A stretch of 64,000 nucleotides of DNA from a bacterium (GTDB lineage: Bacteria > Bacillota > Clostridia > Lachnospirales > Lachnospiraceae), in the NCBI GenBank assembly GCA_963623925.1, contig CAVFNN010000002.1, positions 78,247 to 142,246 on the forward strand. Reading direction: 5' to 3'. Positions within the stretch are counted from its first letter, which is position 1, and the number at the start of each line of letters is the position of its first letter. Below are positions 15,573 through 47,020 of this stretch, in pieces. Made by a program: the position numbers and the translations under genes. The notes below the pieces were generated by a model that was not told the origin of the DNA, searched no databases, and worked only from the letters and a program-made list of their open reading frames with translations.

Positions 15573-15579
15573 GGGAGAG

Positions 15580-15669
15580 ATGGAAACCGTGCTGCTGGTG
15601 TCTCACCGCAAGTCCACCCTGGGCATTGCGGACGAGGTACTGGCGTTTGATACCGGCAGAGAAAGCTAG
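15580..15669 (+). pseudogene. Remnant of the extreme C-terminus of an ABC-transporter ATPase
   Basis: Reads METVLLVSHRKSTLGIADEVLAFDTGRES*, i.e. the H-switch (VSHR) and terminal strands of an ABC NBD, with the rest missing. Confidence 0.65.
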
Positions 15670-15823
15670 AGTTTAAACAGTATTGAACACAAAGCCTATT
15701 TTTGTCCATTCTGCACAGACAGCTGTAGGCTGGAAATGGACGAAATAGCCCATATGCATCACTGGTATAACTACTATGAATACGAGTTATCTATAGATTT
15801 CATGATAAAGCCGGGAAATTTAA

Positions 15824-15852
15824 TAGACAATTTTTTGACATAACGCTATAAT
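15824..15852 (+). promoter_or_regulatory. Putative sigma-A promoter of the opp operon
   Basis: TAGACA-17 bp-TATAAT. Confidence 0.65.
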
Positions 15853-15971
15853 TTCAAACGTGCGCAAGGAGGTGCTGAAAGAAGGTTCACAGCTTCTTGC
15901 GCATTTTGCGATACTGCAGCTTTAAAGCACTAAAGCGGTATCGCGGCAAACATAACAAGGAGGAAATAGTT

Positions 15972-21914: not shown

Positions 21915-22156
21915 CATATCGGAAAATTCTATCGATGCCATTGTGAACTTTCAATAGCATTTAGCTATCACTAACGACCTTTCTTGTGCTACAGTTATGC
22001 ATATTTCTTGACTGTAAAGAGCATTCTGCGCAGGAAAGGCCGACGGATAGGATAATAAGATGTAAGCGGAGATTGGATATACATTGTATATCCTTTCCTG
22101 CGTATATCGTATATTCATAAGCCCACTCCTCTGCAGCAATGCAGGGGAGTATTTTT

Positions 22157-22915
22157 ATGCTGAAAATTGCAATCTATGGTAAGGGCGGCATCGGCAAATC
22201 CACGGTGACCTCCAATCTGGCGGCCGCCTTCGCGGTACGGGGAAAGCGCGTGATCCAGATCGGCTGTGATCCCAAGGCGGATTCCACGGGAAATCTCTTG
22301 TCCGGTGAACCGCTCATGCCGGTCATGAATTATATGCGGGAGTATGACCGGGATCCGGAAAGTCTCGAGGAGATCAGCCGCCGGGGCTTCGGCAATGTGC
22401 TCTGCATCGAAACCGGCGGTCCGACACCGGGCATGGGCTGTGCCGGTCGGGGCATCATCAGCACATTTAATCTTCTGGACGAGCTGCAGCTCTTGGAAAC
22501 GGAGCAGCCGGACGTGGTGCTCTTCGATGTTCTGGGCGATGTGGTCTGCGGTGGTTTTGCCGCACCCATCCGGGAGGGCTATGCCGAGAAGGTGCTGATT
22601 GTCACCAGCGGCGAGAAGATGGCGCTCTATGCCGCCAACAACATCAACACAGCGGTACAGAATTTCGAGGACCGCGGGTATGCCCGGGTCGAAGGCATTG
22701 TCCTGAACCGGAGGAACATTCCGGAGGAGGAGAGCCGTGTCAGAAAATTCGCAGAGGAGCGGGGGCTTCGCATCGCGGCGGATCTTCCCCGGAGCGACGA
22801 GATCAACCTGGCGGAGGACCAGGGGAAAACCGTCATCGAGGCCTATCCGGATTCCGCCATTGCAGAGAAATTCCTGAAGCTTTGTGATGACCTGCTTCGG
22901 GAGGATAAAGCATGA
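22157..22915 (+). CDS. NifH/BchL/CfbC-family nitrogenase iron-protein-like reductase
   Basis: [19 protein letters not shown], both 4Fe-4S ligands ([17 protein letters not shown]), MALYAANNI. Confidence 0.93.
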
Positions 22916-24192
22916 AAGCGCTGAGCTTCACAGTGGCAGAGCTTGCCGCGCTGGGGCCTGAAAAGTTGCCCGCAGAATTCAAAAACGATACGCATCTCAT
23001 CTACAGTTCCCCGGCCACCCTGGCCTTTAACTCGCCGGGCGCCGAGGGCTTCGGAGTGAAGCGGGCGGGCCTTTCCATTCCCGGCTCCGTTATGCTGATC
23101 ATTTCCCCGGGCTGCTGCGGACGAAACACGGGGGAGATCACCCGAATTCCCGGCTATGAGAACCGTTTCTTTTATCTTCTCATGGATGAGACGGATCTCG
23201 TGACGGGACGGCATCTCCGGAAAATTCCCGAGGCGGTGCAGGAAATCGTGGATTTTCTGCCCGAGAAGCCCTCGGTGGTGATGCTCTGCATTACCTGTGT
23301 GGATGCGCTGCTGGGCACCGACATGGAGCGGGTTTCCCGGAAGGCCGAGGAGGCCGCCGGAGTGCGCGTTCGTCCCTGTTATATGTATGCCCTGACCCGG
23401 GAGGGCCGGAAGCCGCCCATGGTGCATGTCCGGGAGTCCCTGTATTCTCTCGTGGAAAAGCAGAAAAAGCGGGGCAGCACCGTGAATCTTTTGGGCTTTT
23501 TCGCACAGCTGCAGGATGACTTCGAGCTCTATGAGATGCTGCGGCACATCGGTGTGAAGCAAATCAATGAAATGGGTCGCTGCGAGACTTACAGCGACTT
23601 TCAGCGCTTCGGCGAGGCGAATTTTTCTCTGGTGCTGAACCGGGAGGCGGTACCGGCGGCGCTGGATATGGAAAAGCGGCTGGGCATTCCCTTCATTTTG
23701 CTGGCACGTTTTTATGACATTGATGCGGTGCAGCGGCAGTATCAGGCCTTGGCGCAGGCCTTGAATCTTCCGCTGGAGACGGATCTAGGCTATGCCCAGG
23801 CAAAGGATGCGATTGAAAAGCTGAAAAAGGCCCGTCCTTCCCTGTGTTTCAATGTCGGCGAGTCCATGAACGGGAATCCTTTCGAGATGTCGGCGGCGCT
23901 GGTGAAGTATGGCTTCCGGGTGGGCGAGATCTACGGCAATCCCACGGCAGAGGATTTCCGGTACCTGCAGTTCCTGGCGGAGAAGAGTCCCGAAACCCGG
24001 GTTCTCTCCAACATGGAACCCACCATGCTGTACTATGACAGCAGTACCTGCCCCTGTGATGTGACCCTTGGCAAGGATGCGGCTTTCTATCAGCCGCAGG
24101 CAAAGCATGTGCGCTTTTCTGAAGACGAGCAGCCCTACGGCTATGCCGGAATCCGGCGGCTGATGGAAGAGATTCTGGAAGGAGTGAAGTGA
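22912..24192 (+). CDS. Nitrogenase component 1-like protein (pair 1, 'alpha'-type)
   Basis: [35 protein letters not shown] overlap with the nifH-like gene. Confidence 0.8.
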
Positions 24193-24193
24193 G

Positions 24194-25459
24194 ATGGTGC
24201 GCGGACTTCGAAAATATCTGACACCCTTCGCGCCGGATCAGTCCGGTGCGGTGTCTCTCCTGTATGAGCTGGGCGGCATGGTGGTGATCCTGGATGCGGG
24301 CGGCTGCACCGGCAATATCTGCGGCTTTGACGAACCCCGCTGGAGCAGCGAACGATCTGCCATTTTCAGCGCCGGACTTCGGGATATGGATGCCATCATG
24401 GGCCGGGACCGGGCGCTGGTGGAGAAAATTGCGAAGGCCCAGGAAAAGCTTGACGCAAAGTTCATCGCCATTGTGGGCACACCGGTACCGGCGGTCATCG
24501 GCACGGATTACCAGGCCCTCCGCCGGATGCTGCAGAAAAAGGTCAGTGTGCCCATCCTCTGCATCGAAACGAACGGCATGAAAAGCTTTGAATACGGCGC
24601 GGAAAAGACCTATCTTGCTCTGCTCGAGGCCTTCGCCTATCCCGCTTCGGAGGAAGAGGATAATGCAGGCGATGCGGAAAACCGGACGAAAGCCACTCGC
24701 ATCGGTGTCTTCGGCACCTTTCCCATGACGGAGAGTGATGCCGAGGAACGCAGTCACATCGCAGCGGGATTTACAGAGCAGCGGTTGGACCGGGACCTAT
24801 CTGATCACGCGTTTTCAGATGCTGGATTTTCCGGTGCCGGAGAGCCGGATCTCTGTTTTTATGGCCACGGCGCAAGTCTTGCGGATTATCGTCACTGTGG
24901 GCAGAACCGGCTGAATCTGGTGACCGCCGTGCCGGGAATGGTGGCAGCGAAGGCCCTGGAAAAACGCTTCGGCACGCCTTATAAAATCGGTCATTCCGGT
25001 GCCGGACGGCTCTTGCAAGCGGCCTGGGAGAAGCTTTCCGAAGTAGAGAAAGAGAAGCTTCGACACTTGCAGCATCCCCGGATCTTGATCGTGCAGGAGC
25101 AGATACTGGGGAATAGCCTACGGGATAGCCTGCGGGCAGCACCAGAGGGATTGTCCGCGCCGGGCGGACAAAAAAGCTGCGCAGAGGGAGAGCAGATTCT
25201 GGCATCAGATGAAGCAGGCCTCCAAAATCCAGAGATCCAGGTGATGAGCTTTTTCAAAATGCTGCCGGAGCTGATGGAAGCGGGAGACCGTTTCCTGGCG
25301 GAGGAAGCGGAGCTTTGGGAGTTGCTGCAAACAAGCTATGACCTGATCCTGGGCGATCCGGTGCTGCAGAAGATGTTGCCGAAGGATTTTAGCGGCTGCT
25401 TTTTGGCCATTCCGGAGCCCGCCATTTCCGGCTTTCCGGCCCTCACGATGGGAGAGTAA
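24194..25459 (+). CDS. Nitrogenase component 1-like protein (pair 1, 'beta'-type)
   Basis: DAGGC, SAGLRDMDAIMG, GTPVPAVIGTD, ETNG, AKALEKRFGTPY. Confidence 0.75.
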   Translation: MVRGLRKYLTPFAPDQSGAVSLLYELGGMVVILDAGGCTGNICGFDEPRWSSERSAIFSAGLRDMDAIMGRDRALVEKIAKAQEKLDAKFIAIVGTPVPAVIGTDYQALRRMLQKKVSVPILCIETNGMKSFEYGAEKTYLALLEAFAYPASEEEDNAGDAENRTKATRIGVFGTFPMTESDAEERSHIAAGFTEQRLDRDLSDHAFSDAGFSGAGEPDLCFYGHGASLADYRHCGQNRLNLVTAVPGMVAAKALEKRFGTPYKIGHSGAGRLLQAAWEKLSEVEKEKLRHLQHPRILIVQEQILGNSLRDSLRAAPEGLSAPGGQKSCAEGEQILASDEAGLQNPEIQVMSFFKMLPELMEAGDRFLAEEAELWELLQTSYDLILGDPVLQKMLPKDFSGCFLAIPEPAISGFPALTMGE

Positions 25460-25460
25460 G

Positions 25461-28001
25461 ATGGGTGAAACGTTTATGACAAAAAAATTTCATATCTATG
25501 GTGTGGTGCAGGGCGTCGGTTTCCGGCCCACCGTGGCACGGCATGCCGCGGAGAGCGGTATCACCGGCATGGTTTCCAATCGTGGTCCCTATGTGGAGAT
25601 TTTTGCCGAGGGAAGCGAGGAACAGCTCACGCATTTCCGGGCGCTAGTCCTGCAAAAGCCGCCGAAGAGAGCCACGATTTTGAAACTCACGGAGCTGCCC
25701 CTTTCCGAAGTGGAGAAGCAGCTGCATTTCCAAGACTTCCGCATCGTGGAGAGCGAGAAAACCACGGGAGAGATCTTTGTCTCCCCGGACATCGCCATGT
25801 GTCCGGAATGTGAGGCAGAGCTGATGGACCCGCAGAATCGCCGCTACCTGCATCCCTTCATCAACTGCACCTGCTGCGGCCCGAGGCTCAGTATATTGGA
25901 CAGCCTTCCCTACGACCGGGAGCGCACCTCCATGCAGCACTTTCCCATGTGTCCGGATTGCGAAAAGGAATACCACGATCCCGCGGATCGGCGCTACGAC
26001 GCCCAGCCCGTCTGCTGTCCCCACTGCGGTCCGGAATTGTATCTCCTGGGCAAGCCGGAGATCCGGGGCGCAGAGGCCTTGCAGCAAACCCGGAGAGTGA
26101 TCCGGGAGGGCGGCATTGTGGCCATCAAGGGCATCGGCGGCTTCCATCTCTGCTGCGACGCCACATCAGAAGTGGCAGTGCAGAAGCTGCGGGTGCAGAA
26201 AAATAGACCCGCGAAGCCCTTTGCCGTTATGGCCCGGAATCTGTCTGCGGCCGAAGACATTTGCGTAATCGACAGTCAGGAGAGAGAGATTCTGACGGGG
26301 CACCAGAAGCCCATTTTGCTGCTCCGAAAGCGGAAAAATATCGCTATTGCGGACGCTGTGGCGCCGGAGAATCCCTATCTCGGCGTGATGCTTCCCTACG
26401 CGCCGGTACAGCGGCTGCTCTTTGACTTCCCGGACGGCGTGGAAATGCCGTCGGTGCTCATCATGACCAGCGGAAACCATGCCGGGGCACCGATCTGCCG
26501 CGACGATGCGAGCGCGGCGCGGGAGCTAGGAGGTATTGCGGATCTGATCCTGTCCAACGACCGGGACATCCGCATGCGGGCGGACGACTCCGTCATGCAG
26601 ATCTTCCGGGGCGAGCCGCTGATGCTGCGGCGCTCCCGGGGCTATGCGCCGCTTCCCTATATGCTTTCCCGACCGGACGATGCGCATACAGCTGCGGGAA
26701 AAGAGCCGACAAATGCAAAGCGCCAGGTACTGGCCATCGGTGGTGAGTTGAAAAACACCTTCTGCTTTGGCGCGGGCGAGCTTTTCTATCCGGGCAGCTA
26801 TGTGGGCGACCTCACGGACCTTCGCACTTGTGACGCCCTGCGTGAGTCGGCAGAACGTATGGAGACGCTATTGGAGGCGAAACCGGAAATCATCGCCTGC
26901 GACCTCCATCCTCGTTACAATTCCACAACAGTGGCGGAGGAAATCGCGGAGGAACGGGGCCTTCCCTTGCTGCGCGTGCAGCATCACTATGCGCATATCG
27001 TATCCTGCATGGCGGAAAACGACCATCCCCAGCCGGTTATCGGCATTGCACTGGACGGCACGGGCTACGGCACCGACGGCAGCATCTGGGGTGGCGAAAT
27101 TCTCCTGGCGGACTACCGGCACTTCCGTCGCATTGCCAGTATGAAACCCTTCCTGCAGATCGGCGGCGACACGGCTTCCCGGGAGGGATGGCGCATCGCG
27201 GTGTCCATGATTTACAGTCTGGAAAAGGCGGAGAACCGGCTGGATTCGGACATCGGCGGCTTCGTGGCCCGGAACCGCACCGAGGAAATCGTTCGGCAGC
27301 TGGGCCTGGCGGACCAGAACACCCTGCGGGCGCAGTTCATGCTCCATGATCGGAATCTGAACGCCATCACCTCCACGAGCTGCGGTAGGCTCTTCGATGC
27401 TGTCAGTGCGCTGCTGGGGATTCGGCTGCATTCCACGTATGAGGGCGAGGGGGCCATTCAGCTTATGTATCAGGCCCTTGCGGCGGATCCGGAAAGTGCA
27501 CTTTCGCTGACGGCAGAATTTGATGCATTCCGGAAAAAGATGCAGCAAAAGGAAGAGGCCCTCGGCCAGAGCAGCATTGAAGAGGAAGGCATCTGGGAGG
27601 ATACGGAGGAAGCGGCAGCCAATGAGCTAGATGCGGAGGCGGATCGTCTCATCGTGCGGACGGACCTTTTGTTCCGCTTCCTACTGGAGAAGCGATTGAT
27701 GCTGACAGCCAAAAATCGGAAAGCGGATAATGTCTTCGGTGTGAATGAACTGGCCTATTTCTTTCATGAAGGGCTGGCGCGGCTGCTCACAGAAGCGGCG
27801 GCACAGCTGGCGGAAGAGAACAAGGTAGATACGGTGGCCCTGTCCGGCGGCAGCTTCCAGAACACCCTGCTTTTAGGGCTTATGGAGGACAAGCTTCAGG
27901 ACCGGGGACTGAAGGTGCTGAAGCATCATCTGATTCCCGCCAACGACGGAGGCGTCGCATTGGGACAGGCCGTTGTCGCCCGTTGGGCCGCGGAATTTTG
28001 A
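25461..28001 (+). CDS. hypF: Carbamoyltransferase HypF
   Basis: GVVQGVGFRP acylphosphatase domain, two Zn fingers (CPEC..NCTCCGPR; CPDC..CCPHCGP), KGIGGFHL, QHHYAH, PANDGGVALGQ. Confidence 0.97.
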   Translation: MGETFMTKKFHIYGVVQGVGFRPTVARHAAESGITGMVSNRGPYVEIFAEGSEEQLTHFRALVLQKPPKRATILKLTELPLSEVEKQLHFQDFRIVESEKTTGEIFVSPDIAMCPECEAELMDPQNRRYLHPFINCTCCGPRLSILDSLPYDRERTSMQHFPMCPDCEKEYHDPADRRYDAQPVCCPHCGPELYLLGKPEIRGAEALQQTRRVIREGGIVAIKGIGGFHLCCDATSEVAVQKLRVQKNRPAKPFAVMARNLSAAEDICVIDSQEREILTGHQKPILLLRKRKNIAIADAVAPENPYLGVMLPYAPVQRLLFDFPDGVEMPSVLIMTSGNHAGAPICRDDASAARELGGIADLILSNDRDIRMRADDSVMQIFRGEPLMLRRSRGYAPLPYMLSRPDDAHTAAGKEPTNAKRQVLAIGGELKNTFCFGAGELFYPGSYVGDLTDLRTCDALRESAERMETLLEAKPEIIACDLHPRYNSTTVAEEIAEERGLPLLRVQHHYAHIVSCMAENDHPQPVIGIALDGTGYGTDGSIWGGEILLADYRHFRRIASMKPFLQIGGDTASREGWRIAVSMIYSLEKAENRLDSDIGGFVARNRTEEIVRQLGLADQNTLRAQFMLHDRNLNAITSTSCGRLFDAVSALLGIRLHSTYEGEGAIQLMYQALAADPESALSLTAEFDAFRKKMQQKEEALGQSSIEEEGIWEDTEEAAANELDAEADRLIVRTDLLFRFLLEKRLMLTAKNRKADNVFGVNELAYFFHEGLARLLTEAAAQLAEENKVDTVALSGGSFQNTLLLGLMEDKLQDRGLKVLKHHLIPANDGGVALGQAVVARWAAEF

Positions 28002-28023
28002 TAGTAGAAGAGGGAGTAAATCT

Positions 28024-28236
28024 ATGTGTGTAGGACTTTCAGCAAAGGTAATTCAGGTTTCCAATGGCATGGCGCTGGTGTCGGCAGACGGCGCGAAGCG
28101 CAGCGTTTCTGCGGCGCTGCTTGACCAGCTGCAGCCCGGGGATTATGTCATGGTGCATGCCGGTGCAGCCATTGCCCGGATTTCGGATTCGGACGTGGAG
28201 GAGACGGACGCACTGCTGGAGGAAGGACTGAAGTAA
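28024..28236 (+). CDS. hypC: HypC/HupF chaperone
   Basis: N-terminal MC, PGDYVMVHAG; 70 aa between hypF and hypD. Confidence 0.92.
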   Translation: MCVGLSAKVIQVSNGMALVSADGAKRSVSAALLDQLQPGDYVMVHAGAAIARISDSDVEETDALLEEGLK

Positions 28237-28237
28237 G

Positions 28238-29329
28238 ATGGATACACTGGAACAGGCAAAAAAGATCCTGCGGGAATACAAGGGACCGAAATGCCGGATC
28301 ATGGAGGTCTGCGGCACCCATACCCACGAAATTTTCCGTCTGGGTATCCGACAGCTTTTGTCGGAAAATATCCAGCTGATTTCCGGCCCGGGCTGCCCGG
28401 TCTGTGTGACGCCGGTTTCCTATATTGATGAAGCGATCTGGCTCGCAGAAGAAAAGGGATGCACGATCTGCACCTTCGGCGACCTCGTGCGGGTGCCGGG
28501 AAGCCACAGCTCGCTGCAGCTGAGCCGCGGAAGGGGCAGTGACATCCGGGTGGTGTATTCTCCCTTGGATGCGGTAACGCTCGCAGAAAAGCATCCGGAA
28601 AAAGAGGTGGTTTTCCTCTCCGTGGGCTTCGAAACCACCACACCGGCCAGCTGCCTCGCGGTGCAGAAGGCTCAGGAAGAGGGACTGCATAACTTTTCCC
28701 TCCTCACCGCCAACAAAACCATGCCCGGGGCCATTGAGGCCATGGCAGGCTCCACAGACCTCTTCCTCTACCCGGGGCACGTATTGGCCATCACCGGCAC
28801 CGCCTATTATGAGGAGCTGGCGCGCCGGGGCATCAGCGGTGTCTGCGCCGGGTTCACGGGACGGGAATTATTGACGGCACTGGCCATCGCCGTGACGGAA
28901 TTTTCCAAGCTTCCGGCAGCAGAGGATAATGCCGTCGGCCCGCAGCAGCCGGGTTTCTTCCGGAATTGCTATCCGCGGGTGGTGACCAGTGCGGGCAGCC
29001 CCAATGCACAGAAAATGACGGCGGAGATGCTGGAGGCCGTGGACGCGGAGTGGCGCGGCATCGGCGTGATCCCGGGATCGGGCCTTGCTCTGAAGGAAAG
29101 CTTTTCGGACTATGACGCCCGGCGGAAGTACGAGATTCCGAAGCTTGACAGCCGCTACAAGACCGCCTGCCGTTGCGGTGAGGTATTGACAGGAAAGATT
29201 CGTTCCGCGGAATGTCCGCTTTTCGGCAAGACCTGTACACCGGAGCATCCTGTGGGGGCCTGCATGGTGTCCTCGGAGGGCGCCTGTGCGGCCTGGTACA
29301 GTTATGGCGGAGAAGTTAGCATCCATTAA
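28238..29329 (+). CDS. hypD: Hydrogenase formation protein HypD
   Basis: MEVCGTHTH, GPGCPVCVTP, GFETT, PGHV, C-terminal CRCG...CPLFG..CTP..PVGACMVSSEGAC. Confidence 0.97.
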   Translation: MDTLEQAKKILREYKGPKCRIMEVCGTHTHEIFRLGIRQLLSENIQLISGPGCPVCVTPVSYIDEAIWLAEEKGCTICTFGDLVRVPGSHSSLQLSRGRGSDIRVVYSPLDAVTLAEKHPEKEVVFLSVGFETTTPASCLAVQKAQEEGLHNFSLLTANKTMPGAIEAMAGSTDLFLYPGHVLAITGTAYYEELARRGISGVCAGFTGRELLTALAIAVTEFSKLPAAEDNAVGPQQPGFFRNCYPRVVTSAGSPNAQKMTAEMLEAVDAEWRGIGVIPGSGLALKESFSDYDARRKYEIPKLDSRYKTACRCGEVLTGKIRSAECPLFGKTCTPEHPVGACMVSSEGACAAWYSYGGEVSIH

Positions 29330-29365
29330 TGTTGCAGCGATTGGCGATACGATTAGGAGGAAAAA

Positions 29366-30373
29366 ATGAATTCTTCAGTGGTGACCCTGGCCCATGGGGC
29401 CGGCGGCAAGCAGACAAGCGAGCTGATTCATCAGGTATTTCAGGCACATTTTCAAAATCCCTATTTCACGGCGGACGACGCCTCGGTGCTGCCGGTGCCA
29501 AAAGGAAGGATGGCCATGACCACAGACGGCTTCATCGTTTCCCCGGCCTTTTTCCCGGGCGGCAACATCGGCAAGCTGTCCATCTGTGGCACCGTCAATG
29601 ACCTGGCCTGCATGGGCGCCCGGCCCCTGTACATGACCTGTGCCTTTGTCATCGAAGAGGGCTTCCCCATGGACAAGCTGGAGGAAATTGCTGCTGCCAT
29701 GGAGAAAACCGCCAAAGAAGTGGGCGTATGTCTCGTGGCGGGAGATACCAAGGTGGCCGGCAAGGGACAGTGTGACGGTCTCTTCATCACCACCACCGGC
29801 GTGGGCGAGCTTCTGCCGGAGGTGGAGACCTCCGGCAAGCTTGCGAGACCTGGCGACGACATCATCGTGACCGGTGATGTGGGACGGCATGGCTGCACCA
29901 TTCTCCTTGCTAGGGATGAATATGGCATCGAAGCAGAGGTTAGCTCCGATTGTGCCCCTCTCTGGAAGCCGGTGGAGGCAGCACTCACGGCGGTAAAAGA
30001 TATCCACGTCATCCGGGATGCTACCCGGGGCGGTGTCGGCACCGTATTGTATGAAATTGCGGCGGAGAGTCAGGTGGGTATTCACCTGGACCGGGCGGCC
30101 ATTCCTGTGGATCCGGCAGTGGCCGGCACGACCGGTATGCTGGGCCTGGAGCCCCTGTATCTGGCCTGTGAGGGCCGCCTGGTGATCTTTGTGCCCCACG
30201 AAGAAAGCGAGAAGTTGCTGTCTGTGCTGCGCGAACAGTCCTATACAAGTGGTGCGGCCATTATCGGTCAGGTGACCGAGAAGAACCCCGGCAAGGTCGT
30301 TATGCGCACCGAGATCGGCTCCGAAACCCTCCTCCCCGAACCGGGGAATGAATTACTTCCTAGGATTTGTTAA
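29366..30373 (+). CDS. hypE: Carbamoyl dehydratase HypE
   Basis: LAHGAGG, GTVNDL, GDTKV, RDATRGG and C-terminal PRIC. Confidence 0.97.
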   Translation: MNSSVVTLAHGAGGKQTSELIHQVFQAHFQNPYFTADDASVLPVPKGRMAMTTDGFIVSPAFFPGGNIGKLSICGTVNDLACMGARPLYMTCAFVIEEGFPMDKLEEIAAAMEKTAKEVGVCLVAGDTKVAGKGQCDGLFITTTGVGELLPEVETSGKLARPGDDIIVTGDVGRHGCTILLARDEYGIEAEVSSDCAPLWKPVEAALTAVKDIHVIRDATRGGVGTVLYEIAAESQVGIHLDRAAIPVDPAVAGTTGMLGLEPLYLACEGRLVIFVPHEESEKLLSVLREQSYTSGAAIIGQVTEKNPGKVVMRTEIGSETLLPEPGNELLPRIC

Positions 30374-30382
30374 GGGGGCATT

Positions 30383-30628
30383 ATGGACACACGCGTAGCC
30401 GTATTGGCCATTATCATTGAAAACCCGGATTCTGTGGCGGCCGTGAATGCCGCACTGCATGAGAGCCGGGACTACATCATCGGCCGCATGGGCATTCCCT
30501 ACCGGGCCAAGGGCATCAGCATCATCAGCATTGCCGTGGATGCGCCCCAGCCCCTGGTGTCTGCCCTGTCCGGCAAGCTGGGACAGCTCTCCGGCGTCAG
30601 CTGCAAGGCCGTTTATTCGAAGGTATAA
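30383..30628 (+). CDS. TM1266-family ACT-like protein (putative iron-only hydrogenase system regulator)
   Basis: 81 aa, MDTRVAVLAIIIE...IIGRMGIPY...ALSGKLGQLSGV. Confidence 0.85.
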   Translation: MDTRVAVLAIIIENPDSVAAVNAALHESRDYIIGRMGIPYRAKGISIISIAVDAPQPLVSALSGKLGQLSGVSCKAVYSKV

Positions 30629-30630
30629 GC

Positions 30631-32091
30631 ATGCAATACAATTGCCCTGTTCATGAAAGCTGGAATATTGTGCACATCGGGAGCCTCCTGCCGGAGAGCC
30701 ATGCCATCTACGTCTGCGGCGACAACTGTCTCCGGGGCGTGGTGATGACCGCGGCGGAAATGGGATTGACGTCCCGCTTTTCGGCGGTGATGCCCACGGA
30801 AGCGGAACTTCTGGACGGCCGCCTGGAAGAGGTGACCATTCAGGGCACGGCGAATCTGATCCGGAAATTAGCCTATCGGCCGAAGGCGGTGCTGCTCTTT
30901 CTGGTCTGCATGCACCACATGGTGGGCGCGGATGAAAACTATATTTTCCGCACATTAGAACAGGAATTTCCCGACATCTGTTTCCTGCGCTGTTGGATGG
31001 ATCCGGCCATGCAGAAGCTCGGCCCCAGTCCCGACATGAAGCTGCGCAGGGAAATGCTTTCGCCGCTAAAGGCCGGGAAACGGACTCAGGAAATGGAAAA
31101 CCAGACAGAAGAGGCCTTCGTTGCGCTGGTATCGGATAACCTGCCTCTGCCAACGGAAAGTACACTGGCGCTTTTTCTGCGAGAATTGGGCATTCCCTAT
31201 CGCCAGCCCCAGGATTGCACCAGCTTCTTGGACTATCAGTCCCTGGGAAAAGCTTCCCTGTTCCTGACCCGCAGTCCGGCTGCCCGTTTCGGCCTCCGGA
31301 AGTTCACCGCGGAGGAGCACAAGGAGGGGCTGTACCTTCCGGTCAAGCTTGCTTATGAGAGCATCCGGGAAAATTTGCAGCTTTTGTTGGAAAAGTTGTG
31401 GACACAGGGGCTTTTAAAAACACCAGTACGTTTATTACTTGCGCCACAGCGAGAAGAGATGCCGGAGGGACAGACAACACCAACCATTGCAGAAGCCGCA
31501 TCTTTAGAGGAATGGTACAGCTGGCTGTCGGATTTCTGTCAGACAGAAGAAGACAGCTGTGAAGCGGCCTTTATGTCACTGCCGTCTTCTCTGTATCAGA
31601 CCGAAATCAGTCTGGACGGTGTGGGCTTGGTGCAGCCTCTAAGTGCGGCGCGGTTGCTCTTAAGCCACGGTCTCCCGGTGAAGCGTATTTATCTGGATGC
31701 GCCGCTTCCTGAGGAGGAAGCAGATCTTCAGTGGCTGCAAGGCCGTGCGTCGGAGGTGGAGATCCTCAGTGTCAGCGATGTCGAGGCCTTCAACCGCGCC
31801 AGAGCGGGTGCGGCGCAAAGGCAGGATGAAAGCGCCTGCGGAACGGGAGATATTGCGGAACAGATGTTTCTGCGCCGGCCCCTGCGCCTTGCCCTGGGAC
31901 CGGTGGCGGCCTTTTATGAGGACACGCCGTATTTTGTGAACCAGATCGAAAACCGGGGAAATTGGGGCTATCAGGCTGTCCGGCAGCTGCTTCAGGACAT
32001 GACAGAAGCCATGGCAAAGGAAAAGTCTGCAGAGGAGCTGGTGCAGCGGAAGGGATGGGGCCTGCCCAGCCTGGTGGAGCCGCTGCCCTGA
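30631..32091 (+). CDS. Nitrogenase component 1-like protein (pair 2, 'alpha'-type)
   Basis: CGDNCLRG, TEAELLDG, PKAVLLFLVCMHHMVGAD, RCWMDP; alignable by eye with 22912-24192. Confidence 0.7.
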   Translation: MQYNCPVHESWNIVHIGSLLPESHAIYVCGDNCLRGVVMTAAEMGLTSRFSAVMPTEAELLDGRLEEVTIQGTANLIRKLAYRPKAVLLFLVCMHHMVGADENYIFRTLEQEFPDICFLRCWMDPAMQKLGPSPDMKLRREMLSPLKAGKRTQEMENQTEEAFVALVSDNLPLPTESTLALFLRELGIPYRQPQDCTSFLDYQSLGKASLFLTRSPAARFGLRKFTAEEHKEGLYLPVKLAYESIRENLQLLLEKLWTQGLLKTPVRLLLAPQREEMPEGQTTPTIAEAASLEEWYSWLSDFCQTEEDSCEAAFMSLPSSLYQTEISLDGVGLVQPLSAARLLLSHGLPVKRIYLDAPLPEEEADLQWLQGRASEVEILSVSDVEAFNRARAGAAQRQDESACGTGDIAEQMFLRRPLRLALGPVAAFYEDTPYFVNQIENRGNWGYQAVRQLLQDMTEAMAKEKSAEELVQRKGWGLPSLVEPLP

Positions 32092-32160
32092 TGCTCAAGG
32101 CATTAGAAAATTCTCTGGCAGAGCAAAGTAAAAATGCCGGGCAGGAGAAAGAGGGGAAGA

Positions 32161-33369
32161 ATGAAGGAAGTCTATAGAGTGGCGCCGGTACCGGCGGGAG
32201 ATGTCTCCGGCATCTGTTCGGCATTGTATGAAATGGGCGGCATGATTGTGATGCACGATCCCTCCGGCTGCAACTCCACCTACAATACCCACGATGAGCT
32301 CCGCTGGTACCGAAAGCCCGCCAACATTTTCATCAGCGGCTGCAGCATGCGGGATCTGGTGCTGGGACGAGACGATAAGCTAATGGATGACATCACAGTG
32401 GCCTTCGGGAACATTTCTCCCAGACCGCGCTTTATCGCCCTCTGCAATTCACCGCTACCTTATCTCAATGGTACAGATTTTCGGGGGATCTGCCGGCAGC
32501 TGGAAAAGCACTGCGGCGTTCCCTGTTTCTATGTGCCCAGCAACGGCATGCATGATTATGTGACGGGCGTCGGTGAAGCATGGCTGCAATATGCCAAATC
32601 GCCGGCCAGTGGATTCACTGCCGCTGCGGATCTTCGCCGGAGAGAAAACGAACACGCTGCGATCGGTCAGACAGGTGTGCAAACCATTTCCGTGAACCTT
32701 TTGGGCCTCACGCCTCTGGATTATCCCAACCCGGAGAATGTGCGGCGATTGTATACACTGCTGCAGAAAAATGGCTTTTCCGTGCTGGCAAATTTCGCCT
32801 ACGAAACCGAAATCGAGAAGCTTTGCCGGGCGCCGGAAGCCGCCGTGAACCTGTTGCTTTCTGCGACCGGCCAGCCACTGGCGGCGTATATGCTTAAGGA
32901 ATATGGCGTTCCCTATGTCATCGGCGCACCGGTACAGGGCTTTTCGACTGTGGTGCTGCGTGCCCTGCGCAGGGCGGCTGAAGGAAGCGAAACCGCCGTT
33001 ATCAGCTACGCCCGGGCAATGGATTCCCGGCCGGTGGAAGCCGTCTTTATTGGGGAAGCGGTTTTGATGGATTCGCTTGCCAGGGCCTGGGAGCTTGCCC
33101 ATGGGAAACGCGCCTATGTGCTCTGTCCCCTGGAAAAGAGTGCGTCTTTGCTGCCGCCGTCCCTTGGCCGTTGTGTAGAGGGAGAGGAGGGACTCGAACA
33201 AGTCCTGCAAATGCTGGCCGAAGACATTGCCCTGAAAGACCGGACGTTGCCGGTTTACGCGGACCCGCTGTACCAGCCCATTCTGCCGCAGCACTGTATT
33301 TTGCAGCCCGTGCCGAGTCTCGGAATTTCCGGACGACTCTACAGAAGCAGCTTTCCGAAATTTTTTTGA
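32161..33369 (+). CDS. Nitrogenase component 1-like protein (pair 2, 'beta'-type)
   Basis: LYEMGGMIVMHDPSGC, DLVLGRD, NSPLPYLNGTD, SNGM, VNLLG, EYGVPY; clear paralogue of 24194-25459. Confidence 0.78.
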   Translation: MKEVYRVAPVPAGDVSGICSALYEMGGMIVMHDPSGCNSTYNTHDELRWYRKPANIFISGCSMRDLVLGRDDKLMDDITVAFGNISPRPRFIALCNSPLPYLNGTDFRGICRQLEKHCGVPCFYVPSNGMHDYVTGVGEAWLQYAKSPASGFTAAADLRRRENEHAAIGQTGVQTISVNLLGLTPLDYPNPENVRRLYTLLQKNGFSVLANFAYETEIEKLCRAPEAAVNLLLSATGQPLAAYMLKEYGVPYVIGAPVQGFSTVVLRALRRAAEGSETAVISYARAMDSRPVEAVFIGEAVLMDSLARAWELAHGKRAYVLCPLEKSASLLPPSLGRCVEGEEGLEQVLQMLAEDIALKDRTLPVYADPLYQPILPQHCILQPVPSLGISGRLYRSSFPKFF

Positions 33370-33473
33370 GCGGGTGTGTCTCTTTTGTGTCTTGCAGGAT
33401 GCTATAGTGTCGCCTGTAAGTGAAACAGATTAGGGATCGATAAACGCGTCAAAAATAAAAAGGAGAAAAAATT

Positions 33474-35660
33474 ATGTGGTACAGTATTCCGACAACTGAA
33501 GAGGAACAGAAGCAGGCCCTGAAGCTGATCTTTGGCAAGAATGATGCTGAAAGAGAGACCGTGGCGGATTTGCTGTCGGCCTATACGACACTGGATAACC
33601 AGCAGATCAACGGATTGAAGGATGAGCTTTATGACCAGCTGTATAAGGCGTATCAGGATGCCGGTATGACCGAGGGAAAGACGAAGGATGCGCTTTTCCC
33701 GGCGGAGACCCGGATACCCGGAAATTTCAAAAAGGCCTTCGAAACTCTGTGGCATACGCTTTCCTATCAGGAGTTGTATCAGACCATTGAAGTGGCTCCG
33801 CTGGATGCGGACATCGAGGCGCTGTTAAAGGTTTCGGATGCACTGGAAGCCAAGGGAATGGTGACGCACAGTGATATGAAGACCATTTTCTCGGATCTTC
33901 TGGATTTGAAGGATCAGTACGGGGATGCGTATTTTGCCAGAAGGAATAAGTGGCCGTACAATCCGGTGGATATCGTGGAGTCTATGCTGGGCAATGGCTC
34001 GCACGCGAGGGAAATCACGGAGGCCCTGAGCAAGGGAGAAATCCATGCAGCGGATTACCTGCAGAGCCGCATCAAGCTTTTGCAGATGGCATCGGAAAAT
34101 TTCGTAGATTCCTTTGCACCGCTGTTCTCCTTCTATGATCCCAGAACCATGGATAAGCAGAAGGATCCTTCCGTAGGGGAGATCCAGACCTATCTTGCGG
34201 ATCTGAAGGCTGCCAAGGAGAGCTTGGCTGCAGCCCAGAATGAATTTTCCGCCCAGAATGTTTCTGCCCGGAGGGGGGTGGAGAATGCCGATGCACAGCT
34301 TGCGGAGCTGGAGGACTTCAGGAAGTATGAGGAAAGTGTTCGTTTTGAGGATTGCTCCGACGCAGAGCGTTCTGCGTTTGGCAGACTGGCGGGAGCTGTA
34401 CAGGATAATCAGACGCTGGCGCTGAATATAGAGCTCGGTAACGAGTGCGTTCAATACAATATACTCCGCGACAAAAACGAGGATATGCTGAGAAGTCTCG
34501 AATATCTCGTGAATAAAGGACTGACACCGGAGAGCGAGCAGGCTGCGGAGAAGTTGAATGCGTACAGAGAGCAGTTCAATGCACTGGATGTGCAGCTGCC
34601 TGCATTCAAGCACTTCGATGAGGATGCCCTCAAGGCCTATATGGCGGCAGAGGACAAGCTCGTGAATACCATTGTTGACAACAACCGGGAGACCTTCTCT
34701 TATCGTTTCGCCCTGGAGGAGGCAAATAACAACATTCAGGAGATTCAGCTGACCCAGGAGACGCTGAAGAAGAAAATGAAGGCTGCTGACCAGCAGACAC
34801 CGGAGCGTCTGAAGGAAGCCGCGAAGCAGCAGGAAGCTTTGACCATTGCTCTGCAGGAGCAGATGCAGAAGCGGGACGAGGCACAGAGTGGGCTGGAGAA
34901 GGTTATGCCGTCCTGCCGGAAAAATTTTGAGGATGCCCGCAATGCGCTGAAGGACGTTAAGAATAACGGACTGGATCATCTCTTCCCCGAAGCATACAAG
35001 GAGCAGCTGAAGACAGAGATCCGGCAGCAGAAGCAGCAGAAGATGGCAGCTCTGCAGGAAAATCTGGACAAGATCAAGGAGACCGCGCAGGATCTCAGCA
35101 TGGCCTACAGAAGAGAGGGAAATCTTCGCGAGCTGGCGGACACCTTCCATGCGGTGAGCAACAGCACAGAGAGACATTGGTATGGCACAGTCAAGAAGAC
35201 ACCGAAGGTATATACGGACCTGAAAGAGGCCATGGAGAATTATCTGCAGGATAAGACCGCAGAAAATGCCAAGCGTGCTTATGAGGAGTGCCGGAATTAT
35301 CTCACCAGCTATATGAAGGAAGACGGCAAGGGGCTGAAGCACGGATCCAATCTTGAGAATGCCCGTCATCAGAGCGTTGTGAGAATGCTGGAGATCATGG
35401 AGGATATTAAGGAATTCCAGCCGCTTCTGCAGAAGGATCTGCAGAAGGAGAAGGCACCGGATGGCTGGGAGGTCGTGCATGAAAAAGAGGATGCCCTGAA
35501 GTACAAAAAGCTGAACTTCAGTGATCTGGAGAAGTCACTGGCGAAGCACTCTTCCAAGGTGAAGAATAGACAAAATCAGGCAGAGGATGCCCAGAAGTCC
35601 AAGGCCTTTTCTGACCTCAACAAGCGCATTGAAAAGAAGGCAAAGCAGAGAGCAAAGTAA
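33474..35660 (+). CDS. Hypothetical large alpha-helical/coiled-coil protein
   Basis: 728-aa ORF with AAAGGAG RBS, E/K/Q/A-rich, no signal peptide or recognisable catalytic motif. Confidence 0.85.
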   Translation: MWYSIPTTEEEQKQALKLIFGKNDAERETVADLLSAYTTLDNQQINGLKDELYDQLYKAYQDAGMTEGKTKDALFPAETRIPGNFKKAFETLWHTLSYQELYQTIEVAPLDADIEALLKVSDALEAKGMVTHSDMKTIFSDLLDLKDQYGDAYFARRNKWPYNPVDIVESMLGNGSHAREITEALSKGEIHAADYLQSRIKLLQMASENFVDSFAPLFSFYDPRTMDKQKDPSVGEIQTYLADLKAAKESLAAAQNEFSAQNVSARRGVENADAQLAELEDFRKYEESVRFEDCSDAERSAFGRLAGAVQDNQTLALNIELGNECVQYNILRDKNEDMLRSLEYLVNKGLTPESEQAAEKLNAYREQFNALDVQLPAFKHFDEDALKAYMAAEDKLVNTIVDNNRETFSYRFALEEANNNIQEIQLTQETLKKKMKAADQQTPERLKEAAKQQEALTIALQEQMQKRDEAQSGLEKVMPSCRKNFEDARNALKDVKNNGLDHLFPEAYKEQLKTEIRQQKQQKMAALQENLDKIKETAQDLSMAYRREGNLRELADTFHAVSNSTERHWYGTVKKTPKVYTDLKEAMENYLQDKTAENAKRAYEECRNYLTSYMKEDGKGLKHGSNLENARHQSVVRMLEIMEDIKEFQPLLQKDLQKEKAPDGWEVVHEKEDALKYKKLNFSDLEKSLAKHSSKVKNRQNQAEDAQKSKAFSDLNKRIEKKAKQRAK

Positions 35661-35693
35661 GCCATACACAAAAGCTTTTTCAGGAGGAAAACA

Positions 35694-37049
35694 ATGAGTC
35701 TGCAGAACACGCCGTCTTCAGAACGGCTCCATATCGGCTTTTTCGGCCGCCGGAACGTAGGTAAGTCAAGTCTTGTGAATCGCGTCACGGAGCAGGAACT
35801 CTCCGTGGTCAGCGATACACTGGGCACCACGACGGACCCGGTACAGAAGGCCATGGAGCTGTTGCCCATCGGTCCGGTGGTCATCATTGATACACCGGGT
35901 TATGACGATATCGGTGCGCTGGGAGAGAAGCGGGTTCGAAAGACGAAAGAAATCCTGAACCGGGTGGACATCGCCGTTCTGGTCACCGACGAGACGACGC
36001 TGTCCAATCCTGTGGACCGGGAGCTCCTGCAGATTTTCCGGGAGAAAAAGATTCCTTATGTGATCTGTTACAACAAATCGGAGACGCTTCCGGCCTTTCA
36101 GGACAATGCCTTCGGCATCGTCAACGATGAGACCCAGGCATTTCCGGCAGCGCTGCTGTCTTCCCTGATTCATCTCCAGGAGGAAAGTGTAGAGACAGAC
36201 TTTGTCAGGGAAGCTGCGCCGAAGACATTGGAAAAGGGGGCAGCAGAGGAGAAGCTGCGCTACGGCGAAATTCAGGTCAGCGCCCTCACAAACCAGAATG
36301 TCTATCTCCTGAAGGCACTGATCGGGCGACTGGGAAAGTCCGTACTGGAAACAAAGGACCTGTTGGAGGGCCTGGTGGCACCGGAGGACCTCTTCATTCT
36401 GGTGATCCCTGTGGACAGCTCGGCACCGAAGGGAAGACTGATCCTGCCGCAGCAGATGGTGCTGGCGGAGATCCTCAACAACCATGCGCGGGCCATCTGC
36501 TGTCAGCCGGAGGAGCTTGGAGATACAATTGCGCTTGTGAACCAGGACGGAAGGAACCACATCCGTCTGGTGATCACCGACAGTCAGGCTTTCCAGACAG
36601 TCAGCCGTATTGTGCCCCGGGAGGTAATGCTGACATCCTTCTCCATCCTTATGGCCCGGTACAAGGGCTTTCTCAAGGAAGCGTTGAAGGGCGTGGCGGC
36701 CATTGAAACTTTGCAGGATGGCGACCGGGTGCTGATTTCCGAGGGCTGTACCCACCATCGCATGTGTGACGACATCGGCAGCTTTAAAATTCCAAACTGG
36801 CTACGTAAATATACGGGAAAAGCGTTGGAATTTGAGACCACCAGCGGCCACGGCTTCCCGGAGGAGCTGGGAGGGTACAAGCTGATCATTCACTGCGGCG
36901 CCTGCATGCTGAACGACCGGGAGGTGTTGTTCCGTATGAAGCAGGCCCAGGACCAGGGCGTGCCCTTCACGAACTACGGCACCTGCATTTCCTTTATGAA
37001 TGGAATTCTGGCGCGGTCCACAGAAATGCTGGAGGGCTATGAACTGTGA
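35694..37049 (+). CDS. hydF: [FeFe]-hydrogenase H-cluster maturation GTPase HydF
   Basis: GRRNVGKSS, GTTTD, DTPG, APKGRLILPQ, ITDSQ, EGCTHH...HCGACM cluster motif. Confidence 0.96.
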   Translation: MSLQNTPSSERLHIGFFGRRNVGKSSLVNRVTEQELSVVSDTLGTTTDPVQKAMELLPIGPVVIIDTPGYDDIGALGEKRVRKTKEILNRVDIAVLVTDETTLSNPVDRELLQIFREKKIPYVICYNKSETLPAFQDNAFGIVNDETQAFPAALLSSLIHLQEESVETDFVREAAPKTLEKGAAEEKLRYGEIQVSALTNQNVYLLKALIGRLGKSVLETKDLLEGLVAPEDLFILVIPVDSSAPKGRLILPQQMVLAEILNNHARAICCQPEELGDTIALVNQDGRNHIRLVITDSQAFQTVSRIVPREVMLTSFSILMARYKGFLKEALKGVAAIETLQDGDRVLISEGCTHHRMCDDIGSFKIPNWLRKYTGKALEFETTSGHGFPEELGGYKLIIHCGACMLNDREVLFRMKQAQDQGVPFTNYGTCISFMNGILARSTEMLEGYEL

Positions 37050-38104
37050 CGAACAAAGAACTGATCCAGCAGCTTGCTGCGGAGGGAAATCTTTCCGACG
37101 CAGCGCTGCTGCAGCTTCTGAACGAGCATACGGAAGAGGACAAGGAATTCTTGTTTTCTCTGGCCCGGGAGAAGCGGGAAAGATATTACGGGAAAGAAAT
37201 CTACCTCCGGGGACTCATTGAGTTCTCGAACTATTGCAAGAATGATTGCAGGTACTGCGGCATCCGTTGCAGCAATGGTCACGCGGAGCGTTACCGCCTT
37301 AGCAAAGGGGAAATACTGGATTGCTGTACCCAGGGTTATGCCCTGGGCTTTCGCACGTTTGTATTGCAGAGCGGTGAGGACCTTCACTACAGCACGAAGG
37401 ACATCTGTGATATTGTATACCATATCCGCAGCCGTTTCCCGGACTGTGCTGTGACACTGTCCATCGGTGAGAAAAGCCGGGCGGACTACCAGGCCTACTT
37501 CGATGCGGGTGCGGAGCGGTATCTGCTGCGGCATGAGACCGCAGATAAGGCGCATTACCGGCATTTGCACCCTGAAGTGCTTTCGCTGGAAAACCGGATC
37601 CGCTGTCTCTATGATCTGAAAGAAATCGGTTATCAGGTGGGCTGCGGCATGATGGTGGGGGCACCGGGGCAGACAAAGGAATGCCTGCTTTCCGACTTCC
37701 GCTTCATGCAGGAATTGCAGCCGGAGATGATCGGTATTGGGCCCTTCATTGCCCACCACGACACGCCTTTCCGCGATATGCCCAACGGGACGGTGGAGGA
37801 AACCTTGTGGCTCCTGGGGCTTTTGCGGCTCTTCTTCCCCTATGCGCTGCTGCCGGCCACCACGGCCCTCGGTACACTGGACCCCCTGGGCCGGGAAAAG
37901 GGCGTTCTGGCTGGTGCCAATGTCGTCATGCCGAATCTTTCTCCCCGGGGCGTACGAAAGAAGTACCTCCTCTATGACGGAAAGATCTGCACCGGCGATG
38001 AGGCGGCTGAGTGCCGCCGCTGCATGTCTCTCCGCATGGAAAGAATCGGCTACCAGGTGGTGGAGAAGAGAGGGGATTGTTATCTGCACGGCCCTGTGTT
38101 ATGA
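37046..38104 (+). CDS. hydE: [FeFe]-hydrogenase maturation radical SAM protein HydE
   Basis: RGLIEFSNYCKNDCRYCG (CX3CX2C), RYLLRHET, MIGIGPF, PATTAL, GANVVMPN, YLLYDGK; GTGA overlap with hydF. Confidence 0.9.
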   Translation: MTNKELIQQLAAEGNLSDAALLQLLNEHTEEDKEFLFSLAREKRERYYGKEIYLRGLIEFSNYCKNDCRYCGIRCSNGHAERYRLSKGEILDCCTQGYALGFRTFVLQSGEDLHYSTKDICDIVYHIRSRFPDCAVTLSIGEKSRADYQAYFDAGAERYLLRHETADKAHYRHLHPEVLSLENRIRCLYDLKEIGYQVGCGMMVGAPGQTKECLLSDFRFMQELQPEMIGIGPFIAHHDTPFRDMPNGTVEETLWLLGLLRLFFPYALLPATTALGTLDPLGREKGVLAGANVVMPNLSPRGVRKKYLLYDGKICTGDEAAECRRCMSLRMERIGYQVVEKRGDCYLHGPVL

Positions 38105-46766: not shown

Positions 46767-46877
46767 ATATTGTTATGGCCTGTAAGATCCCACGGAAAGC
46801 AGTTGGACTTGTGTATCCTGTAAAACTGTGCTATAGTGGAGCGCAAACGAAGCCGGAAATAAGGAGAGAAGAGGCTT

Positions 46878-47020
46878 CGTTAGCGCCAGGGCCGGAAACG
46901 GCCGACGAGGTGGGCAGTGATCGAAAGATTCGGCGGATGCTGCCCCGGAGTAGTGAATCGACAGAGAAAAAGAAAAAAGCGGAATCAAAACCGTAACAGA
47001 GCTTTTCTCATCACCGGAAA
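46878..47020 (+). ncRNA. glmS ribozyme (GlcN6P-activated); 3' boundary approximate
   Basis: Core AGCGCCAG-[P1 GGCCG-GAAA-CGGCC]-GACGAGG-TGGGCAGTG-ATCGAAAGATTCGGCGGATG-CTGCCCCGG matches the glmS consensus; lies directly upstream of glmS, after TTGTGT-17-TATAGT. Confidence 0.93.

Follow-up and report, generated by a model that had tools for sequence, protein, structure and literature searches.

The window analysed here, a 64,000-nucleotide stretch of a Lachnospiraceae genome (contig CAVFNN010000002.1, assembly GCA_963623925.1), carries a tightly packed run of 13 genes, all on the plus strand (window 22157-38104, from the listing of open reading frames). A NifH-like ATPase and four subunits resembling nitrogenase component 1 (D1, K1, D2 and K2) stand beside HypF, HypC, HypD and HypE, a small TM1266-family protein, a gene without a family match, and the [FeFe]-hydrogenase maturases HydF and HydE (Table 1). 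The run is interpreted here as one functional island that would supply the di-iron part of the H-cluster to [FeFe] hydrogenases without HydG. Gene content and comparative genomics give this interpretation a probability of roughly 0.6.

An earlier note on this DNA had described a co-oriented, tightly packed run of these genes, and all 13 are present. Scored with Pfam and NCBIfam models against curated NCBI cut-offs, HypF, HypC, HypD, HypE, TM1266, HydF and HydE each lie above the cut-off. The motifs that the note had named in HypE, HypD, HydF, HydE and the NifH-like protein proved intact in the translations. The C-terminal PRIC of HypE is kept in 40/40 homologues, and the N-terminal Met-Cys of HypC (Cys2) in 38/38. 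The start given for the run coincides with the conserved NifH start; the first residues of HypC are MCVG..., encoded from 28024, and the TTG at 27973 that was first proposed is not its start.

Table 1. Features of the gene run (window coordinates) and loci of the importer variant discussed in the text (locus handles with genome, contig and position).
Feature	Coordinates	Strand	Evidence
NifH-like ATPase / Fe protein (NflH1, NifH1)	22157..22915	+	Fer4_NifH 282 bits; GKGGIGKS, C101, C137
D1, NifE/NifD-like component-1 subunit, module 1	22912..24192	+	Oxidored_nitro 101 bits
K1, NifN/NifK-like partner of D1	24194..25459	+	Oxidored_nitro 68 bits
HypF carbamoyltransferase	25461..28001	+	TIGR00143 722 bits, cut-off 466; complete domain set with both HypF zinc fingers
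HypC chaperone, 70 amino acids (aa)	28024..28236	+	TIGR00074 60.5 bits, cut-off 48
HypD	28238..29329	+	TIGR00075 377 bits, cut-off 193; CGTH and GPGCPVC motifs
HypE	29366..30373	+	TIGR02124 413 bits, cut-off 252; C-terminal PRIC
TM1266-family small protein, putative regulator of [FeFe]-hydrogenase systems	30383..30628	+	TIGR03959 106 bits, cut-off 61
D2, very divergent component-1-like subunit, module 2, system marker	30631..32091	+	Profile comparison and predicted fold
K2, partner of D2	32134..33369	+	Oxidored_nitro 85 bits
728-aa Lys/Glu/Gln-rich gene, no family match	33474..35660	+	Inserted, outside conserved set
HydF GTPase scaffold	35694..37049	+	TIGR03918 502 bits, cut-off 326; EGCTHH (CxH) and HCGAC (HCxxC)
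HydE radical S-adenosylmethionine (radical-SAM) maturase	37046..38104	+	TIGR03956 557 bits, cut-off 255; CKNDCRYC (CX3CX2C)
Hairpin and T-run	22125..22150	+	11-bp stem, ends 6 nt before NifH-like start codon; GGGGAG ribosome-binding site in 3' arm
Importer-variant loci	L120 (G199:C2:10000-29900); L121 (G244:C9:2000-21900); L127-L206		

The NifH-like protein, D1, K1 and K2 are members of the nitrogenase superfamily, yet they fall far below every curated nif, Cfb and DPOR threshold. The NifH-like protein is matched best by CfbC (297.5 bits, cut-off 402) and comparably by nifH (295.6 bits, cut-off 394), both below threshold. Its Walker A motif, both switch regions, C101 and C137 are invariant in 32/32 homologues; the two cysteines are presumably the equivalents of NifH Cys97 and Cys132. 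The CfbD model reaches 29 bits against a cut-off of 268, with K1 only, and the nifE model gives 59.6, 45.1 and 42.2 bits against a cut-off of 505, with no match to D2. The best solved relatives of the D1 profile are NifE chains (1.3e-14), and D1 C129 aligns with a NifE cluster cysteine. The NifH-like gene is present as a single copy in the genome, and its product is therefore presumed to serve both D1K1 and D2K2.

Three of the four component-1-like genes claimed in the earlier note, D1, K1 and K2, are recognized by Oxidored_nitro. The fourth, D2, has no sequence match in Pfam, NCBIfam or PDB, including every nitrogenase model, and joins the others through profile comparison and predicted structure only. 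Profile-profile alignment pairs D1 with D2 (E 3e-35), as it does K1 with K2 (E 7e-63). The AlphaFold model of D2 (predicted local distance difference test, pLDDT, 83) has VnfK, NifK, NifE, NifN and ChlB as its top Foldseek matches (probability 1.0, template-modelling score, TM, 0.55-0.62). By these predictions D2 is a protein of nitrogenase-component-1 fold, like those of nitrogenase, NifEN and DPOR. Conserved residues comprise C68, C69, H101, C126 and C129 in D1, C38 and C43 in K1, H8, H15, C29, C33, C93, H95 and H96 in D2, and H41, C46, H53 and H140 in K2. Three D2 cysteines and one K2 cysteine could ligate an interface [4Fe-4S] cluster of the NifEN or DPOR kind, and the extra histidines of D2 and K2 could form a further metal site. 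A predicted complex of HypC with D1 and K1 scored 0.00, which counts neither for nor against the proposal.

Six-frame model searches of the whole genome (2.30 Mb, 75 contigs, 97.8% complete) return only HydE itself for HydG (66.7 bits, cut-off 312). Two HydA are encoded on contigs C17 and C32, each with the TSCCP, MPCxxKK and CxxGCxxG H-cluster-binding motifs. The [NiFe] large-subunit models PF00374 and PF00346 match nothing in the genome, HypA and HypB were not found there, and the best NifB match is 22.7 bits against a cut-off of 344. The earlier note had seen no hydG, hypA, hypB, nifB or hydrogenase catalytic subunit in the window, and this holds across the 2.30-Mb assembly save for the two intact hydA on other contigs. 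The cluster genes are all single copy in the genome, except the 728-aa gene. The sole HypB-like GTPase of the genome is UreG (356 bits, C16:17333-17911), and the genome therefore encodes a urease accessory system.

The gene set is conserved well beyond this genome, although its order is permuted. A D2 query against one genome per species recovered 41 loci, which their own records label Lachnospiraceae, Eubacteriaceae (Pseudoramibacter), Coprobacillaceae/Erysipelotrichaceae (Sharpea, Faecalitalea), Atopobiaceae and Oscillospiraceae. All 11 core genes stand in a single run in 29/41 loci, an arrangement far beyond chance; the other 12 loci are partly rearranged or cut by contig ends. Cultured isolates that bear the cluster include Sharpea azabuensis DSM 18934, Pseudoramibacter porci, Lachnospiraceae NK3A20 and Clostridium thailandense PL3. 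TM1266 is found in most of the related loci. Two modules can be told apart, the first comprising NifH1-D1-K1-HypF-C-D-E and the second TM1266-(NifH2)-D2-K2 with HydF/HydE. The second NifH (NifH2) precedes D2 in 21/41 loci and is not found in the window or its near relatives. The Hyp genes of the cluster always follow NifH1-D1-K1. The modules are swapped in G182 (TM1266-HydF-HydE-NifH2-D2-K2, then NifH1-D1-K1-HypFCDE) and lie on two contigs in G284 (NifH2-D2-K2 on one, NifH1-D1-K1-HypFCDE-HydE on the other), while in G325, G229 and G225 HydE, with or without HydF, is encoded elsewhere in the genome.

Gene fusions follow the same modular lines. D1 and K1 form a single open frame in 22/36 loci, NifH2 and D2 in 12/22 (about 728 aa; L024-L033, L035, L045), and D2 and K2 in one locus (L011). 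Among database relatives of D2, many proteins of 724-756 aa combine Fer4_NifH with Oxidored_nitro, which confirms the NifH-D2 fusions; we know of no description of a NifH-NifD-type fusion. The cluster adjoins hydA in 3/52 loci. Sharpea porci and S. azabuensis have hydA immediately ahead of NifH and another hydA-like gene immediately behind HydE (L038:589-2307 and 14696-15997; L040:590-2308 and 14699-16000), and in Lachnospiraceae NK3A20 hydA follows HydE (L011:16786-18249).

The phylogenetic profile bears on HydG. A set of 55 D2-bearing genomes was assembled from the window's own genome, five near relatives, 36 distant genomes, G182 and 12 further genomes from a family sample. HydG scores above cut-off in 0/55 of them, cultured isolates included, and HydA is present in 55/55. 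Among the genomes examined, the system is seen solely where HydG is missing and HydA is present. The family sample comprised 151 genomes around G024, a centre picked for having the cluster, so that 150 are unbiased; HydE is encoded in 84, HydG in 71 and a strong D2 (>380 bits) in 14. The genomes with HydE and without HydG are exactly the 14 D2 genomes, and none of the 70 with both HydE and HydG has a strong D2. The anti-correlation with hydG that the earlier note had predicted is thus borne out. Three weaker D-like matches in this sample (200-250 bits), one of them in a HydG-bearing genome, represent another NFL type. A second sample of 151 genomes, from the window's own order, holds HydG in 76 and HydE in 81; its five genomes with HydE and without HydG are the cluster-bearing G000 and G182 and three genomes of genus g31. 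Among the canonical genomes, 41/70 encode HydG and HydE no more than 10 kb apart.

Two candidates for an overlooked HydG were rejected. Matches of 170-180 bits are ThiH-like proteins of about 420 aa that lack the HydG C-terminal Cys motif and occur in HydG-bearing genomes too, and in G041 a 52-bit C-terminal HydG match comes from the last part of ThiH, encoded in a thi operon.

The Hyp proteins, for their part, often lack a conventional client, since no [NiFe] large subunit was found in 28/42 Hyp-type cluster genomes tested; the same negative holds for 5/5 near relatives.

A HydE tree of 90 sequences (45 from D2-bearing, 42 from HydG-bearing and three from g31 genomes) adds a historical dimension. 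One group across six labelled families holds 38/45 HydE of D2-bearing genomes and parts the window's HydE from the HydE of HydG-bearing genomes in its own family, a pattern consistent with the island having been transferred whole. The other 7/45 fall among HydG-partnered HydE, with that of G325 sister to that of the HydG-bearing G287. The HydG/D2 label changes at least four times on the tree, so that on several occasions one of the two, HydG or the D2 system, must have taken the place of the other. Because some HydE of D2-bearing genomes sit among HydG-partnered ones, an ordinary HydE can apparently work with the D2 system, which argues that the product of this system resembles that of HydG and that the HydE substrate is much the same.

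Set against known systems, the run resembles HydEFG maturation in its true HydE and HydF, both above equivalog cut-offs and with intact motifs, in its TM1266 companion and in the HydA clients in the genome. It differs in that the place of HydG is taken by some nine genes that belong to two other metallocofactor systems. Like the HypABCDEF system, it has HypF, HypC, HypD and HypE above equivalog or subfamily cut-offs with their catalytic cysteines kept; unlike that system, it is accompanied by neither HypA nor HypB in its own genome, nor by a [NiFe] large subunit there or in the 28 cluster genomes noted above. The ATP-binding Fe protein with both cluster cysteines, the nearness of D1 to NifE with one aligned cluster cysteine, and the predicted component-1 fold of D2 recall NifEN with NifH. 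NifB and nitrogenase are missing, however, scores lie far below the nifE, nifN, nifD and nifH cut-offs, D2 and K2 are His-rich, D2 goes unrecognized by Pfam and NCBIfam, and NifH-D2 fusions occur. The run shares superfamily and two-component ATP-driven design with the NFL enzymes (CfbCD, DPOR/COR, methylthio-alkane reductase, isethionate reductase and Group VI), and its NifH-like protein is closest to CfbC. Even so, that CfbC score is below threshold, and its gene neighbours serve hydrogenase maturation, not tetrapyrrole or sulfur metabolism; D1 and D2 were compared with solved structures only. In the available part of a 2026 Chem Rev review of NFL proteins, gene context links NFL genes to sulfur and tetrapyrrole metabolism only, and several groups have no known function (PMC13474568). 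The terms 'hydrogenase maturation', HydF, HypD and HypF do not occur in the text of that review (PMC13474568).

A mechanism can be proposed from the known chemistry of the parts. HydG is a radical-SAM tyrosine lyase that makes Fe(Cys)(CO)2(CN), a complex that HydE and HydF turn into the 2Fe subcluster. In the Hyp pathway, HypEF convert carbamoyl phosphate to cyanide and HypCD build Fe(CN)2CO. As far as the available part of one study goes, synthetic Fe(Cys)(CO)2(CN) with HydE and HydF matures HydA without HydG (PMC11256358). The island might reach a similar point by another route. HypF and HypE would use carbamoyl phosphate to produce cyanide and transfer the latter to iron on HypC/HypD, as they do for [NiFe] enzymes. 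The NifEN-like D1K1 and the ATP-driven NifH-like protein would work with Hyp, most likely by providing low-potential electrons for making or loading CO and adjusting the CO:CN ratio; alternatively, these electrons might serve C-S cleavage at the HypE thiocyanate. The divergent, His-rich D2K2 would then rework the Fe-CO-CN unit, or hand it over, in a form that HydE can activate, served here by the shared NifH-like protein and elsewhere by its own, often fused, NifH2. HydE and HydF would finish the 2Fe subcluster and deliver it to the two HydA encoded elsewhere in the genome, and TM1266 may be a small regulatory or ligand-sensing protein. Module 1 (Hyp with NifH-D1K1) would accordingly act as an endogenous source of Fe-CO-CN and module 2 (NifH-D2K2) as a constant adaptor beside HydE/HydF.

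A bolder version of this proposal, put forward only tentatively, casts a nitrogenase-family enzyme as an organometallic synthase. With NifH-D1K1 and Hyp as helpers in this window, NifH-D2K2 would attach CO and CN to iron by means of ATP-driven low-potential electrons, and a widespread importer-bearing operon described below would be a salvage or uptake version. The chemistry might combine reductive C-S cleavage of HypE-thiocyanate or free thiocyanate with reduction of CO2 to CO.

Several points weigh against the island as a HydG-independent supply line. Its support is comparative, and the sources assigned to CO, CN and electrons are putative. Most of the genomes are metagenome bins of unknown completeness, and the counts show a pattern, not a probability; the Fisher p of 3e-16 for the family sample is an overstatement, as relatives are not independent. 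The main HydE group has an SH-aLRT (Shimodaira-Hasegawa-like approximate likelihood-ratio test) support of 91, below 95. Because HypCD normally builds Fe(CN)2(CO) and the HydE substrate carries (CO)2(CN), a ligand-adjusting step would be needed. A short open reading frame resembling a [NiFe] large subunit (PF00374 positions 1-70, 360-403 aa) occurs in 14/36 distant cluster genomes, and Hyp might serve that product there. Finally, two groups of genomes lack HydG and do not have the complete island. These make the picture wider than a replacement of HydG by Hyp: that claim of the earlier note passes each comparative check that the note had named, and is qualified by an importer variant without Hyp and by the g31 genomes, which lack both Hyp and D2.

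The importer variant is represented by G199 and G244, which lack HydG, have four and seven HydA matches, respectively, and are without HypD and D1. Their locus combines a FecCD permease, an ATP-binding cassette (ABC) ATPase, HydE, NifH2, D2, K2, a Peripla_BP_2 periplasmic-binding protein (PBP) and HydF, the variant's typical order being TM1266-FecCD-ABC-HydE-NifH-D2-K2-PBP-HydF. The TM1266 domain is fused to the importer ABC ATPase in G244, as it often is in this variant. A query with the G199 D2 found 299 matching stretches in species-representative genomes. Counts from the best 80 of these, many of them cut by contig ends, are NifH 80, D2 80, K2 76, PBP 66, TM1266 64, ABC 61 and FecCD 60; among the maturases HydE was found in 53, HydF in 29 and HypD in one, and a HydG query gave no match within 10 kb in any of the same 80. 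Hyp is thus missing from 79 of the best 80 importer-variant loci and cannot be a universal HydG substitute. Since G199, G244 and probably a much larger operon family are without Hyp and D1K1, the constant partner of HydE/HydF is the second nitrogenase-like module rather than Hyp.

These loci give ground for an alternative in which NifH-D2-K2 itself is the HydG substitute and makes or processes the Fe-CO-CN precursor. Hyp with D1K1, or the FecCD importer, would then be alternative feeders, the importer taking up or salvaging an iron complex or other precursor, and Hyp would be optional. The family sample points the same way, with D2 in all 14 genomes that have HydE and lack HydG and HypD in 12/14, as do the absence of HypD and D1 from G199 and G244, the contrast of D2 in all, HydG in none and HypD in one of the best 80 importer-variant loci, and the fusion of TM1266 to the importer ATPase. 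Genome-wide HydG status, however, rests on two importer-variant genomes, and no cyanide source is evident where both Hyp and HydG are missing. More distant NifH-D-K-PBP-FecCD-ABC operons (L052-L056, in G091, G154, G115, G135 and G183) carry neither TM1266 nor HydE/F and are found both in genomes that encode HydG and in genomes that do not, so the importer and the nitrogenase-like genes may be joined through an older role that has nothing to do with this one. On balance this alternative is a serious contender that is nonetheless unlikely.

The g31 genomes raise a different difficulty. All three encode two HydA and a TM1266-HydE-HydF operon and lack HydG, HypD, D1 and D2, which means that HydG loss is not always tied to the D2 system. 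In each, a B12-binding radical-SAM/DUF4080 gene directly follows HydF (L057:12056-13798; 95-96% identical in L058 and L059), and this gene is missing from the HydEF loci of two HydG-bearing g31 congeners. It may represent a third HydG-less route.

That HydA, HydE and HydF can coexist without HydG and without the cluster, as in g31, also lends something to an idea already raised in the earlier note. The cluster would build a new Fe-CO/CN or other cofactor for D1K1 or D2K2 as a catalytic enzyme, with Hyp, HydE and HydF recruited to the task and HydA matured otherwise. Two complete NifH-D-K sets exceed the apparent need of a simple carrier role, the conserved His-rich D2/K2 sites could hold a non-standard metal site, and the lack of NifB means that any such cofactor would be unlike FeMo-co. 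The idea does not account for the way D2 and HydG exactly complement each other among genomes with HydE, for the HydA in 55/55 genomes or for the hydA flanking the cluster in Sharpea, and the closest solved relatives of D1 are NifE scaffolds, not catalytic NifD. It is retained as a rival, though a distinctly improbable one.

Chance adjacency of three unrelated systems (Hyp for [NiFe] enzymes, HydEF for [FeFe] enzymes and a nitrogenase-like system for sulfur or tetrapyrrole chemistry), with HydG missed in incomplete assemblies, could appeal to the draft bins and to the [NiFe]-like open reading frame in 14/36 distant genomes, yet it is scarcely credible given a 97.8%-complete genome without [NiFe] large subunit, HypA or HypB, the lack of HydG from 55/55 genomes including cultured isolates against its presence in 70/84 HydE-bearing genomes of the family sample, and a gene set kept through permutation, splitting and fusion.

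One gene of the run stands apart from the proposed island. The 728-aa gene, which the earlier note had listed in the run as an orphan, is not in the conserved set and was rejected as a core part: it is missing from L008 and all distant loci, is displaced in L009, and has paralogues on two other contigs of the genome (C32:2590-4761 and C63:1335-2345), which together form a small multi-copy family. It is found only in near relatives, at varying positions; in L007 and L009 it separates D2 from K2. No Pfam or NCBIfam model matches it, and a protein atlas search gave no lead (best score 0.76). The closest relatives of the run, L006-L009, share 87-99% protein identity with it and come from bins labelled Parolsenella (Actinomycetota), Clostridiales, Lachnospiraceae and Dysosmobacter, a spread that reflects either unreliable labels or bins or very recent movement of the island.

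The run is flanked upstream by an Opp-type ABC transporter and downstream by a solute-binding protein and a hybrid histidine kinase. The hairpin ahead of the NifH-like gene may terminate the upstream opp operon, or it may act as a leader structure or translational control element. An Rfam scan of the window found no family at the cluster leader; its sole match is a glmS ribozyme/riboswitch at window 46871-47019 on the plus strand (RF00234, 63 bits, gathering score 37). Promoter-like sites (10, against 7.8 +/- 3.1 in shuffles) and terminator-like sites (21, against 15.9 +/- 3.8) in the window are uninformative, that hairpin excepted.

The proposed system appears undescribed. In the open-access papers and bioRxiv preprints searched, nitrogenase-like genes were nowhere combined with Hyp and HydE/HydF, and no bacterial pathway independent of HydG was described; the earlier note likewise knew of no characterised system of such composition.

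HydG is treated as one of three indispensable [FeFe]-hydrogenase maturases. That another route may exist is an acknowledged question. In the available part of one study, most [FeFe]-hydrogenase-bearing archaea and some eukaryotes are reported to be without maturases, with a 'likely' alternative pathway (PMC11216029). Another, as far as its available part goes, leaves hydG unidentified in some Clostridium acetogens and proposes no replacement (PMC9431212). The island offers a concrete, conserved candidate gene set for replacing HydG, present in cultured gut and rumen isolates. If the organometallic-synthase version were true, there would be a second, tyrosine-independent route to the H-cluster and HydG would not be universally required. 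The same genes would become candidates for the 'alternative maturation pathway' that has been proposed to operate in archaea and eukaryotes without HydG. The proposed island in itself would bring the NFL superfamily a new role, and Hyp a client beyond [NiFe] enzymes. Prediction of H2 production from rumen and gut genomes would also be affected, as a missing hydG might otherwise be taken for a dead pathway.

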